16,838 bases of DNA from a virus. Below are positions 1 to 6,000 of the stretch, piece after piece. Location of the stretch: the UHGV virus genome UHGV-1653291. One strand, given 5' to 3'. A program made the position numbers. Within the stretch, counting starts at the first letter, position 1, and the number at the start of each line of letters is the position of its first letter.

Positions 1-3000
1 TAAGATCAGGGTTGGTGTCCATCGGTAATGGACTAAAAGTTGGTGGTAGTGTTACTGGTAATTTGACCGGAAACGCAGATACTGCGACCAAGATCAAGAC
101 AGCACGTAAGATTGGGGGCGTGGCATTTGATGGATCGGCAGATATCAACTTGCCTGGAGTCAACGCTACCGGTAATCAAAACACTACAGGTAATGCTGCG
201 ACCGCCACGAAACTTCAGGCAGCCAGAACGATTAACGGTGTGTCATTTGATGGTAGTGCAAATATCACATTGACCCCTTCAAATATTGGGGCATTGGCAT
301 TAACTGGAGGGACTCTTTCAGGTGGTTTAACTGCTGCTGGTGAGGTTATTTCAAGGTCAGCAAATGGTCTGCGTATTGCCTATGGCAACTATGGATTCTT
401 TATCCGAAATGATGGATCAAACACATATTTTATGTTGACAGATTCGGGTAACAGTCTTGGTACGCACAATAGCTTAAGGCCGTTTATAATTAGTAACCAT
501 ACTGGCAATGTTACAATTGCAACTAAATTAAACGCGAGTGGTGGTATCACTGGATCTTTATCGGGTAATGCAAGCACAGCAACCAAATTGCAAACTGCAA
601 GGACAATTAACGGCGTAAAATTTGACGGCTCGGCAAATATTGAAGCGTTTCCGCCAGGTGTTCCGCTGCCGTGGCCATCAGATACACCACCTGCAGGTTA
701 TGCAATCATGCAGGGGCAGACGTTTGATAAGGCAGCATATCCGAAACTGGCTATTGCCTATCCTTCAGGTGTTATTCCAGATATGCGCGGCTGGACAATC
801 AAGGGCAAACCCGCCAGTGGCCGGGCCGTATTGTCTCAGGAACAGGACGGCATAAAATCGCACACCCACAGCGCCAGCGCATCCAGTACGGATTTGGGGA
901 CGAAAACCACATCGTCGTTTGATTACGGCACTAAATCCACGAATAACACCGGGGCGCATACGCACAGTCTGAGTGGCTCTACGGGGTCTGCCGGTGTTCA
1001 TACTCATGGTAATGGTATTCGTTGGCCGGGAGGCGGCGGTTCTGCGTTAGCATTTTATGATGGCGGTGGGTTCACTTATGTCAAGGATTCACAGTATCAA
1101 GTAAGCCCGGAGACTTCTTCCTATAGATCGTATTATCAACGTATTCAGACACAGTCAGCAGGTGCTCATACCCACTCGCTGTCTGGTACTGCAGCAAATG
1201 CTGGTGCACATGCACATACTGTCGGTATTGGTGCTCATACGCACTCCGTTGCGATTGGTTCACATGGACACACCATCACCGTTAACGCTGCTGGTAACGC
1301 GGAAAACACCGTCAAAAACATCGCATTTAACTATATTGTGAGGCTTGCATAATGGCTTTCAGAATGAGTGCAGAAGCACAAACTATCCGCGTTTTCAATT
1401 TACTTGATGGAACCAATGAATTTATTGGTGAAAGTGACGCATATATTCCGCCGCATACAGGTCTGCCTGCAAACAGTACAGATATTGCACCGCCTGATAT
1501 TCCGGCGGGTTATGCAACCGTTTTCAATGCAGATGAAATGAAATGGGAACTGATGGAAGACCATCGCGGAAAGACCGTCTATGAAACGAAAACGGGAGCA
1601 GCCATTTATATTTCTGAACTTGGCGTATTACCTCCAGACGTGACAGCCATTTCCCCGGAGGGGGATTATCAGAAATGGAACGGCAATGCGTGGGTGAATG
1701 ATGAGAATGCAGAGCGTGATGCGCTTGTCAGAGCGGCTGACTCTCAGAAGAAAGAGCTGATTGCATATGCAGGTGAAATTATTGCCACTCTGCAGGATGC
1801 TGTCGATTTAGATATGGCTACCGAGGAAGAAAAGTTAAGCCTGACACACTGGAAAAAATACCGTGTGCTACTGAATCGCGTTCAGCCGGAAAATGCCCCT
1901 GATATCGAATGGCCAGAATTAGTGTAAAGGCAAGATGATTTAAGGAACAAAACCGCCAATATGTTTATTAGCGGTTTTGCATTAAGTCAAAACAACCCTT
2001 TAACGGAGCTGGCCGCGCTGTTAAGGGATGATGTCACCTTATCTTTGAAGCCGGACAGCATATTGCTGAACGATGAGTTTACCGCAGGTTTCTGGCTGGG
2101 AATCATTGACTGGAGTTAGGCCAGTAGTATGATGCTCGCAAAACGAGATCCAATTTAGATCCTTTTACTGGTGGATTATCGTTCGATCAGTGAGAGACTT
2201 CGTGCATGACCGAAAGTGTTGTGGTAGAGTTCTCTTAAAACCACGTAACGTGGTTATGATTGTGGGTGTCTGGTTGGAAAGTGACCAGATATGGAAACAA
2301 AAAGCCCGCAGATAAATCTGCGGGCTTCTTGCGACATCCACGGAAAACCAACAACAACAATCCATGGGCGCCTCGACAACTCCCATTATACGTTGGTTTT
2401 CCGTGGACGCAAGAGCGAACATATGGATAGACCAATGCCGTCTCTACGTTCAGCTTACGTTTGTAATTTGTCGCCGGAGTTCCAGCCTCCAAAGCACCAT
2501 ACGCACAAGCTGCCGCTGGTGTTATCTGATGCTTTACAGCGCATTAATGGGCGTGATCTTACGTGTGAGGTTGCGTTCTACGTTAATCAACCGTCAGAGC
2601 GGAAGCGCCGGATAAACGAGCATCGTCGTCGGGCGATTAATGCTGTGATCGCTGCGATTTTGCACCATGTAAACATCATTTCTAAGCGGGTTCTGGCTAG
2701 TGCTGAGGCGTTGGCTGATTTTTGCGGCCTGTCTACCGTATCCGAAGCTGGGAACAAGTCTATAACGCGCTGTACAAGGGCGTTGTCGCAACTGAAAGCG
2801 TTAGGTTTTATTGATTATGAACGTCGCTGGGATAGGGTGAATAAACAGTATTGGCCAGCGAAAATAGAGATTCGTGATCAACTGCTGGAAACCGTTGGTA
2901 TTACTGAACAAGCATGGAGACGTGCGGTTAGCCAGAAACTTAATTACTTCAATGCGAAGAATAGCGAACGGCTTAAAAAAGCGATAACGGAGGCTGATTA

Positions 3001-6000
3001 TAAGCGTATTGTTATTCAGGAGCAGATGGAGAATGTATGGCGTCAGAGGAAGACGGCCAGAGAGATAAAGGCAAAACAGAAAGCAGCGGAGAGAGCTGCG
3101 CGTCTTGTTCGGGAAAAGGGAGAGGCCGAACTTCGTCATCAAATCACCAGAGAGGTTAGTCAGGAATTTGCTGATGGCATGTATCCTGGTGCTGACCTTG
3201 CATATTTACGATCCCTCGTTGAGCAGCGTTATAACAGGTTAAGAAAGACCTGGAAATCACTCCAACATTAACCCACCTGAATGATGAATCCGGTTTTACC
3301 GGAGGATTATCTACGTCGCAATAAAATATCTGTTCAAAAAACAATCTAAATTAATTTTCTCTAAACCTGAACACAGCAAAAATATCGCCTTTACAGGCAT
3401 CGGCTAATAAAGTTATCCACAGTTCTGATATGTATATGCAAATGGTTTTTTATAATAGATGCACTAAACAAATAAATGCAAAATCACTTTCTTTTATTAA
3501 GACTTTCTTTATTTAACTTACACAGGCTTTGCCTGTGAATATGTTCGCCCTTGCAGCGAGCTAAAGCTCGCGCCGGTTCGAGTCGCTACGCTCAAATATA
3601 CCTCCTCCGGCACTTGCCGGAGGCATGGAGCAGCCTGATCATCCTTTTCGAAACGGCACGTTTCGAACTATACAAAATCAATTTATATAAGGCCGAAATA
3701 AGGCCTACGGCCGGGCTTTGCAGGAGGAAGGGGCGAGCCTTATCAATAAACGTCGATAAATACGCACACAGTAGCCATCAGAACGCGATAAAATGTAAGA
3801 AACATCATTTCCTATTAGACATAGAAAACTTGTCTTATACGCAATGTAGTAAATTTCTATTGCCACATAGGAAAAGATTTCCTACCATCGTAGATATAAT
3901 AAATGGAGATGGTTATGGATAAAGATACTGTTTTAAAAATGTTGAATCCGGCTTGTTTAAAAAAAGCGGATGAATGGGAATCTCCTACATGTGGAGAAGT
4001 TCGGGCAGTCATTGGCCTGACCGGAATGAGCGGCTCGCAGTTAGCCAAAAAACTAGGCTTAAAAGATAGTCGCAATGTTCGCAACTGGCAGATGTTAAAG
4101 GAGTCCACATCCAGATCCAGCATTCCGTATGCAGCCTGGGCGCTGCTGTGTTACTTCGCTGGGTTAGGGTTAATCTTCATTGATAACAAAACAGATGTTT
4201 GAAACATGCAAATATGAGGTTTGTTATGGAACTTGTACGCAAAACACGCAAAGAGTTCTTGGACCTGTATCGCATGGGAGCTTTCACTTGTGTTGTGGCT
4301 ACCCAGGACGAAGTGACAAAAAGCTGGCGGCTTTTTGCTCTCAATAAAAAAGGGATTGCCGTTTTCATTGAAAAAGCCCGTGGTGGTATCCGCGAATGGG
4401 CGGGATTGAATTATGTGGCTGATTTTTGCGCAGCTATGGGGATTCGTCGCTGGGAAGTCCATATGCCAGGAGTAAAGTCACAAAAATAGGGCTTTCGCGT
4501 CGAAAATGAGGCGAAACTGAAAACGAGATTTCATTAACAAATAAGCAACATAAAAAACGGTGGAAAACGCCCAGGAAAACATGATCTTTTGAGCGGATTT
4601 TTTAGATCCGACAATGAACGGTGATCCGGTGGTGCCGATAACGTCCATTATGTTAAATGGCCCCGTTTTTCTTGAAATTATAACCCACAGGTTATATAGT
4701 TAGTGATATAAACTACAGGTTATAGGATTGAGCATGTGGACGGTACTTTTTAGCCAGCGATTTGACGACTGGCTAAATGAGCAAGAAGACGCTCTTCAGG
4801 AAAAGGTTTTGGCTGATTTGAAAAAGCTACAGGTTTACGGACCTGAGTTACCCAGGCCATATGCCGATACCGTAAAAGGTTCTCGGTACAAAAATATGAA
4901 AGAGCTTCGCGTTCAGTTTTCTGGCCGTCCGATAAGAGCCTTTTATGCGTTCGATCCGATTCGCCGGGCTATCGTTCTTTGTGCAGGAGACAAAAGTAAC
5001 GATAAGCGGTTTTATAAAAAACTGGTGCGTATAGCTGAGGATGAGTTTGCAGCACATCTGAACACACTGGAGAGCAAGTAATGAGAACATTAGATGAGGT
5101 GATTGCCAGCCGTTCACCGGAAAGCCAGGCGCGAATTAAAGAAATGGCAGATGAGATGATTCTTGAGGTCGGCTTGCAGATGATGCGTGAAGAACTCCAG
5201 TTATCACAAAAGCAGGTTGCTGAGGCGATGGGTATAAGCCAGCCAGCAGTAACAAAGCTGGAGCAGCGCGGAAATGATTTAAAGCTGGCGACATTAAAGC
5301 GTTACGTTGAAGCTATGGGAGGCAAATTAAGCCTGGATGTTGAGCTTCCCACAGGAAAACGAATAGCGTTTAACATCTGATCAGAACGAATGATAAGCCC
5401 CTGTTGCAAAGGGGCTTTTTTGTGCTCATGGAATTATATAATTATAGATTTATATAAAAAGTGCTTTACAGGTGGGAAAATATTTCCTAGTGTTATACCC
5501 GAAACCGAGCGATACCCGCCCTGGTTAAACCGGAGATAACCCGATGAAAGTACAAGACCGTGAAGTAGTAAAAAACCTCCTGCAATACCTGACCTCAAAA
5601 AACCTGACGGGCAGCGTTGAGTACCGTGAAGCGTTAAAACATTTCAACGTCACTACGGTTTATCGTTGGGAAAACAAACATTCTGAAAGACCGTATGTGG
5701 TGGATGTTTTTGCGCCTGATATTGAGTGCGGTTTTGAGCGCCATTCATTCAAAAAGAAACATTCCGCTGATGTTTTTTGTGAGGTTGTATGTGCGGCAGG
5801 AGATGATGAGTGATGCGTATTTCCTTCAAACGTGCGACTGAGCAGCAACGCAAAGAGTTCCTGGCTGATGATGTTGCGGCCGTTTATGACCTCATGAAAG
5901 AGGTTGTGGAATCAGGAAACTACACGGCGGCAAAGATGCTTAAACTGCAATTCTTGCTGGGCGACCTGAAATACAAATCCGAAGTTGTCGCCGGACGACG

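Follow-up and report, generated by a model that had tools for sequence, protein, structure and literature searches.

The 16,838-nucleotide virus genome UHGV-1653291 (hereafter the window) raises the question of why a plasmid-type replication module, made up of a RepA initiator gene and an origin-like region, should lie between phage tail-fibre genes and a phage packaging operon, and whether it serves a temperate phage that persists as an autonomous plasmid. The window corresponds to the full length of ENA ERZ772820 contig NODE_1680_length_16838_cov_2.706131, a linear product of a low-coverage (2.7x) metagenome assembly. Its open reading frames (ORFs) were listed and analyzed by profile searches against Pfam, NCBIfam and PHROGs (27 ORFs scanned), and the coordinates of all features are collected in Table 1. 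The results indicate that window 2100-3725 very probably serves plasmid maintenance, as the replicon of a known family of phage-plasmids (~47-49 kb) in enterobacteria; members have a head of the lambda type and a contractile tail of the P2 type.

The replicon DNA (2100-3800) was found to be 97.8-99.9% identical to ~60 PLSDB records, all of them non-mobilizable and nearly all E. coli plasmids of 46-50 kb, and each of the four E. coli plasmid records examined in detail was circular. In E. coli plasmids of 47-49 kb, identity to the window was 98-99.9% for the replicon, the toxin-antitoxin pair, the ParB_N/methyltransferase genes, terS/terL, the portal gene and the protease gene. The circular 49.9-kb record NZ_CP032259.1 encodes a complete set of head, contractile tail, baseplate and tail-fibre proteins together with repA and the same toxin-antitoxin pair, and further carries genes for Rha- and cI-like regulators, ParA, a Ref nuclease, holins and an endolysin, and the ParB_N/methyltransferase/terminase block. 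Such near-identical complete relatives bring together on one circle the virion, lysis and regulatory genes and the replication initiator by which a phage-plasmid is recognized. In the relatives inspected, repA was the sole annotated initiator, with no second initiator, helicase or primase annotated, and no conjugation genes were found in the complete ones.

Within the set of complete E. coli genomes (5,426 genomes), 247 of the 250 matching places were located on plasmids and three were chromosomal. Window 4600-6400 matched ~2% of these genomes (103/5,426), and the reference strain ATCC 25922 is a carrier (plasmid NZ_CP009073.1). The Yersinia phages vB_YpM_39, vB_YpM_41 and vB_YpM_44 (49 kb, GenBank, listed host Y. 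pestis EV76) share the same head genes and are 98.4-99.1% identical across the repA region; as GenBank phage records with the same genome, they point only indirectly to the making of infectious virions. These comparisons support the view that the element is a phage-plasmid already known by sequence and annotation in dozens of near-identical copies. The original prediction, a temperate phage kept as an autonomous plasmid, is thus upheld by the near-identity to plasmids, the phage gene content, the plasmid locations and the Yersinia phage records. Among the papers that could be searched, none was found on the 47-49 kb family, its replicon or the phages vB_YpM_39/41/44. Two candidate matches were discarded: pSLy3, considered as the matching group, proved to be a member of the SSU5 supergroup (~100 kb), and vB_YpM_HQ103, a phage of 32 kb, is unrelated.

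More distant members extend the family beyond E. coli. Salmonella members (e.g. S. Concord pAR-0407-1) share ~74% DNA identity and 84% RepA identity with the window, and the order tail fibre/Tfa, repA, toxin-antitoxin pair recurs at 60-85% RepA identity in Salmonella, K. aerogenes, Citrobacter and metagenomes. Relatives with ~60% RepA identity, on a Citrobacter contig and a metagenome contig that both have Mu-type baseplate genes, have repA in the same slot, preceded by baseplate, tail-fibre and Tfa genes and followed by a toxin-antitoxin pair (the loci of distant RepA relatives are L015, from Citrobacter freundii UFWO01000003.1, L019 and L016). A 63%-identical RepA is encoded on a plasmid that has type IV secretion genes (VirB4/TrbC) and no phage genes nearby; the replicon clade is therefore common to phage-plasmids and conjugative-type plasmids.

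The initiator had been described as an IncFII RepA encoded at 2423-3271. The translation of this interval gave significant matches to Pfam IncFII_repA (PF02387; 8e-44, 150.5 bits against a cutoff of 22.9, profile positions 2-272 of 275) and to NCBIfam NF040977 RepA_IncFII_LM (232.2 bits against a cutoff of 70, positions 1-266 of 266), and also matched PHROGs phrog_7060 (6e-123), listed there as a phage family of unknown function. RefSeq names the gene of the relatives 'plasmid replication initiator RepA'. The strict IncFII models were not reached, RepA scoring 79.3 bits with the IncFII equivalog TIGR03474 (cutoff 446.9) and 82.3 bits with PRK13750 (cutoff 478). A classical IncF replicon, NZ_CP128580.1, typed IncFIA/IncFIB/IncFIC, was used as the positive control, and direct comparison with a classical RepA showed 34% identity over a 148-residue core only. 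Searching plasmids with RepA by tblastn returned the phage-plasmid family at 99% identity or more, three Salmonella relatives at ~84%, plasmids of ~43.6 kb at 37%, Buchnera plasmids at 30-34% and classical IncF plasmids at ~33% over 45% of the protein; blastn of the replicon DNA against plasmids matched no IncF plasmid. By these comparisons RepA is a member of the IncFII/IncL-M superfamily on a separate deep branch, and the name IncFII holds at superfamily level only, so that standard replicon typing may miss elements of this family. The nearest RepA proteins outside the phage-plasmids, which carry the same RepA name, are those of the ~43.6-kb plasmids (Enterobacter, Klebsiella, Citrobacter and E. 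coli) and of the Buchnera plasmids. Unlike the phage-plasmid family, these plasmids have backbones without phage genes, and RepA identity is too low for control elements in common with them to be inferred.

The 5' boundary of repA was examined in alignments of five lineages, namely the window, Salmonella L003, L011, K. aerogenes L017 and L018, with RepA identities of 81-100% and an overall identity of ~74%. The N-terminal sequence MPSLRSAYVCN starts at 2435, and the pattern MP(S)LRS.YVCN is kept from that point in all five; the start at 2423 adds four residues and is a possible alternative. The Salmonella homologues are annotated as 277 amino acids long. A RefSeq/PGAP model of 326 amino acids starting at 2291 was rejected, as its ATG is absent in Salmonella and its frame is broken there by a 7-nt indel, and the extension, which overlaps the predicted antisense RNA gene described below, is probably an annotation artefact. 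An ORF from the ATG at 2364 and a 19-codon ORF at 2256 were also rejected, neither being conserved.

The leader between the candidate repA promoter and RepA was found to contain, on the opposite strand and 57-139 nt upstream of the RepA start, the gene for a predicted antisense RNA. This RNA would begin with a 5' tail and continue with stem-loop I (2372-2333), whose apex varies, and stem-loop II (2331-2304), a GC-rich terminator that is followed by a U run. Its minimum free energy was -41.1 kcal/mol (z = -6.4), and none of 200 shuffled sequences folded as well. The same two-hairpin fold was obtained in five of the five lineages, with stem-loop I remaining paired despite differing sequence; in the terminator, three lineages have G-C in place of A-U, a compensatory double change. 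The leader blocks 2296-2345 and 2362-2422 were invariant, while the interval between them (2346-2361) was hypervariable and contained indels. The -10 block of the candidate antisense promoter, CCCATTATACGTTGG, was likewise invariant; a consensus promoter scan did not list this promoter, the -35 element of which agrees at three of six positions only. Such features would be expected of an antisense RNA that sets copy number and recognizes its target through a loop specific to each lineage; the RNA itself is a prediction. A permissive Rfam search returned no meaningful family, and weak, sub-gathering matches to Thr_leader and CsrC were dismissed, as only the minus-strand, terminator-type hairpin was aligned.

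Other elements of the leader were also considered. No CGCC/GGCG pseudoknot partner of the kind present in I-complex replicons was seen by eye in the sequence near the RepA start, and no copB/repA2 gene was recognized upstream of the leader, where the sole ORF (1961-2119) had no Pfam match. Paired GATC sites 11 bp apart (2147-2161) lie just past the -10 element of the repA promoter and are also paired in Salmonella and L011; they could make expression sensitive to Dam or SeqA. Neither GATC nor GATCCTTTT was enriched in the window. A 10-codon leader ORF, MTESVVVEFS, lies within 2206-2255, and in the alignment its Salmonella counterpart, MESVMIEFF, ends at the same TAA; a small conserved hairpin, CCACG...CGTGG, follows this ORF in the alignment.

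Downstream of repA, the predicted consensus DnaA box and AT-rich origin were both present. The box keeps its position and sequence in the five lineages, as TTAT(C/T)CACAGTT, and from the box through the hairpins that follow the AT-rich core the five sequences hardly differ. The GC content falls to 0.26-0.29 at 3400-3549 compared with ~0.48 around it. The strict form of an iteron-like motif, ATANATGCAM, was not significantly enriched. The 140-bp spacer that follows repA is poorly conserved except for a hairpin just past the stop codon; the spacer occupies the position of CIS in IncFII plasmids, and the hairpin may act in termination or in cis-action.

IncFII plasmids have their priming signals for the leading strand a few hundred bp past oriR. 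The window contains five conserved hairpins, which as single-stranded DNA folded with -41.8 kcal/mol (z = -3.9 against shuffled controls), both strands folding about equally, and double-sided changes were seen in 8 of 54 pairs across the five lineages. By analogy, this block probably provides single-strand initiation signals for the leading strand. A 38-bp piece of it (3543-3580) is 94.7% identical to positions 26687-26724 of CP083756.1, a 46.8-kb Serratia marcescens plasmid that may likewise be a phage-plasmid and have an origin related to this one.

Several points weigh against the assignment of these control and origin functions. The DnaA box alone is within chance, with 0.77 expected per window, and the covariation of the hairpins comes from a comparison of only five lineages in which most pairs never vary. 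The claim of an antisense-controlled, IncFII-type replicon stands as far as an antisense RNA is predicted in the repA leader; the Rfam family CopA (RF00042) was unmatched in 1900-4000 even at E <= 10. Ahead of RepA, 12-17 nt from its start, are a conserved sequence resembling a Shine-Dalgarno (SD) site and an ATG. No conserved leader peptide results: the ORFs that begin at this ATG have 13, 46 or more than 95 codons, or the ATG shares the repA frame. In addition, a predicted hairpin of the sense leader (2332-2416) hides an SD-like AAGAG, and antisense pairing could in principle free it, giving the opposite of repression.

Comparison with known replicons shows the same mixture. The window and IncFII plasmids of the R1/R100 type share the Pfam RepA family and, as predicted for the window, an antisense gene on the opposite strand of the repA leader. 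The classical IncF control likewise has TTATCCACA in the same orientation after the repA stop (at 176 bp, against 142 bp in the window), followed by AT-rich DNA. That control has copB, CopA (RF00042, 92 bits with a gathering threshold of 60), tap and repA, whereas the window, unlike IncFII, has no copB/repA2 and no RF00042 match, and no conserved peptide comparable to tap was recognized in it. Among phage-plasmids, P1 (IncY/p0111) and SSU5/pHCM2 (IncFIB) have the same lifestyle, that of a low-copy plasmid with an initiator, an addiction module and partition (PMC7969092), but their virion modules and replicase family are unrelated to those of the 47-49 kb family, whose genome is half the size. 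The groups that Pfeifer et al. name in the main text of this survey do not include the latter, and 61% of the phage-plasmids detected there fell in uncurated communities (PMC7969092).

One mechanism consistent with these data can be proposed, in which the sequence features are those described above and the remaining steps follow the IncFII paradigm. The sigma-70-type promoter would produce a transcript with a leader of ~300 nt and repA. A constitutive antisense RNA of ~80 nt, running from 2380 to 2296, would pair with this leader, limit RepA synthesis and so set the copy number, and the variable apex of stem-loop I would confer incompatibility specificity. RepA, probably acting in cis, would bind the AT-rich core past the DnaA box and open the origin with host DnaA, the five hairpins probably supplying the leading-strand priming signals. 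The adjacent HigBA-like pair would add post-segregational killing.

The position of the packaging genes required a separate explanation. A lambda-like packaging block a few kb downstream of the replicon had been predicted and is indeed present in the window; in complete relatives ~26 kb separate it from the upstream repA gene. Two parts of the window, 1979-5547 and 5427-16838, align in each complete relative at places 16-19 kb apart. In NZ_CP032259.1, direct copies of a ~122-bp promoter-like repeat lie after the antitoxin gene (~21480-21601) and after an MT-A70 methyltransferase gene (40109-40230), and the window holds a single hybrid copy, flanked on the left as in the first and on the right as in the second. 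Unlike its 47-49 kb relatives, the window lacks the 18.6 kb between the repeats, a segment for immunity, ParA, recombination and lysis that contains the immunity regulators, Rha, ParA, Ref, the lysis cassette and MT-A70, and it has a different mosaic of the tail-fibre tip. The proximity of repA to the packaging genes is therefore due to the absence of these 18.6 kb at the 122-bp repeat and is peculiar to this contig. Searches of PLSDB, the complete E. coli genomes and collections of viral, genome and metagenome sequences gave no match to the exact junction. A true deletion is no more likely than a misjoin made by the assembler at the repeat. An independent derivative with a different deletion does exist: pCREC-544_3 (NZ_CP024829.1; loci L004 and L021), a circle of 32.2 kb, retains repA, HigBA and structural genes, lacks the ParA, lysis and ParB_N/methyltransferase genes, and has terL split into two ORFs.

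Could the element be something other than a working phage-plasmid? It could be an ordinary IncFII-like plasmid that acquired phage genes, or a defective remnant that makes no virions. The window itself lacks immunity, ParA and lysis genes, the 32-kb circle pCREC-544_3 lacks many phage genes, and P1-like phage-plasmids are known to decay into plasmids (PMC10879196), all of which would fit. The complete relatives, however, consist of phage genes plus repA, ParA and the toxin-antitoxin pair, with no conjugation genes or other plasmid backbone; the genomes deposited as isolated phages of Y. pestis EV76 have 98-99% identity in repA and the head genes; and repA is again found next to tail-fibre genes in lineages whose baseplate modules differ. 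A plasmid or remnant origin is accordingly judged quite improbable. A chromosomally integrated prophage with a captured, possibly inactive, replicon would account for the three chromosomal places and would be compatible with a window that is a linear contig fragment, yet the other 247 places are on plasmids, and the relatives have no recombinase other than the Hin-type invertase that adjoins their invertible tail-fibre segment. As the original prediction had stated, no integrase was found among the ORFs scanned, and a scan of the window for tRNA genes and att-like tRNA fragments was negative. The chance of integration appears very slight.

A different possibility concerns the function of the replicon rather than the nature of the element. 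RepA and its origin might serve mainly lytic-cycle replication rather than plasmid maintenance, or both, as the lack of a second annotated initiator, helicase or primase in complete relatives and the phage-family status of phrog_7060 could suggest. Set against this, low-copy plasmid maintenance is typically marked by tight antisense-type control and a neighbouring addiction module, the 63%-identical RepA belongs to a type IV secretion plasmid without phage genes nearby, and deletion derivatives without lytic functions persist as plasmids with the same replicon. A mainly lytic or a dual role is thus considered unlikely, and the reading of the module as a plasmid-maintenance replicon is preferred. 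Two further readings, that the family has an undescribed antisense RNA analogous to CopA and that the contig is a genuine mini-derivative of ~29 kb, are put forward together only tentatively, and the pair is regarded as somewhat doubtful.

Table 1. Coordinates of the replicon, junction and neighbouring features in the window.
Feature	Position	Strand	Basis or remarks
Tail-fibre gene, C-terminal part, cut by contig end	12-1352	+	Gp34_trimer 1.3e-25, Collar 1.3e-10, Phage_fiber
Tfa tail-fibre assembly protein	1352-1927	+	Pfam Caudo_TAP 2e-39
Candidate repA promoter, TTGACT-16 nt-TATGAT	2106-2133	+	10/12 consensus positions; kept in Salmonella lineage; putative function
Predicted cis-antisense RNA, ~80 nt	2296-2380	-	Fold, five-lineage conservation
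Candidate antisense promoter, TTGCGT (2412-2407), 16-nt spacer, perfect TATAAT (2390-2385)	2385-2412	-	Read from sequence
RepA replication initiator, 278 amino acids	2435-3271	+	Pfam, NCBIfam; alternative start 2423
Hairpin TCCGG-N5-CCGGA	3289-3303	+	Just past repA stop; CCGG...CCGGAG kept in five lineages
DnaA box TTATCCACA	3413-3421	+	Sole TTATNCACA in window; 142 bp after repA stop
AT-rich origin core, three ATGCA(A/C) motifs at 3436, 3459 and 3476	3422-3520		Near-invariant in five lineages
Five conserved GC-rich hairpins, candidate priming signals	3521-3725		Single-stranded DNA fold, five lineages
Promoter-like site TTGCCA-17 nt-TACCAT	3860-3888	+	Upstream of small genes 3903-4489
HigBA-like type II toxin-antitoxin pair: toxin 4728-5081, helix-turn-helix (HTH) antitoxin 5081-5380	4728-5380	+	Pfam
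Single hybrid copy of ~122-bp promoter-like repeat, junction at which 18.6 kb are missing	5427-5547	+	Comparison with complete relatives
Three ParB_N-domain ORFs	7418, 8035, 10707		Pfam; paralogous, phrog_620
Small terminase terS	11288-11848		PHROGs
gpA-type large terminase TerL	11854-13710		Profile search
Lambda-family portal	13958-15532		Profile search
ClpP-type prohead protease	15501-16589		Profile search

The genes on either side of the replicon were largely as predicted. The tail-fibre and Tfa genes, expected to end at 1927, were both confirmed by profile matches. Window 1-1527 is 97% identical to tail fibres of chromosomal prophages, with matches of at least 80% in more than 4,000 complete E. 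coli genomes, and the tail-fibre tip together with Tfa forms a mosaic (window 1-2078; locus L001 17315-17860; locus L002 17736-20032). Between Tfa and repA, relatives have either a Hin invertase with an invertible alternative fibre/Tfa segment or a 'transferase', and the window has neither; a glycosyltransferase is also among the genes found in relatives upstream of repA. The HigBA-like addiction module was confirmed as a Gp49 toxin gene (2.4e-23, 82.4 bits, cutoff 23.9) that is followed by, and abuts at 5081, an HTH_3 antitoxin gene (3.9e-10, 40 bits, cutoff 23). The toxin gene coming first and the HTH antitoxin gene second is the arrangement of the HigBA type; RefSeq labels the toxin of the relatives as RelE/ParE family.

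The ParB-domain genes had also been counted as part of a plasmid lifestyle. All three ORFs are present, two of the three proteins scoring below the Pfam cutoff (23.9 and 24.3 against 26.3), and they are not a partition system. No ParA is encoded in the window; it lies in the segment of the relatives that the window lacks. Of the ParB_N proteins (7418-9414 and 10707-11297), one is fused to an S-adenosylmethionine methyltransferase and one is encoded immediately upstream of terS, and they look like DNA-modification or packaging accessories. An AT-rich, ORF-free stretch of 400 bp (10294-10706) lies upstream of the ParB_N-terS-terL genes, and three Yersinia phage records begin at 10294-10306; this stretch is a candidate cos/packaging region. 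A palindromic motif, GGAAAAGATTTCCTA, is present at 3870-3884 in the spacer of the promoter-like site that precedes the small genes. In the form GGAAAANATTTCCTA it occurs in the spacers of two promoter-like sites (3870-3884 and 5475-5489), with three matches against 0.18 expected. The motif is likely to be an operator for a regulator of the element, which is possibly encoded in the absent segment.

Phage-plasmids spread genes in two ways, viral and plasmid-borne, and resistance genes are carried by some of them. What is known of their biology is unchanged by these results, the element being real but ordinary, and the value of the analysis lies in annotation: the RepA start is corrected, a candidate copy-number RNA is proposed and the origin is mapped. 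If the predicted antisense RNA is genuine, its apex would be a quickly evolving determinant of incompatibility, allowing related phage-plasmids to coexist in one host. If the junction is a true deletion, recombination between the 122-bp operator-promoter repeats would have removed the module for immunity, ParA and lysis, and the mini-derivative would be a self-replicating, toxin-stabilised carrier of structural genes, a phage-plasmid caught turning into a plasmid.

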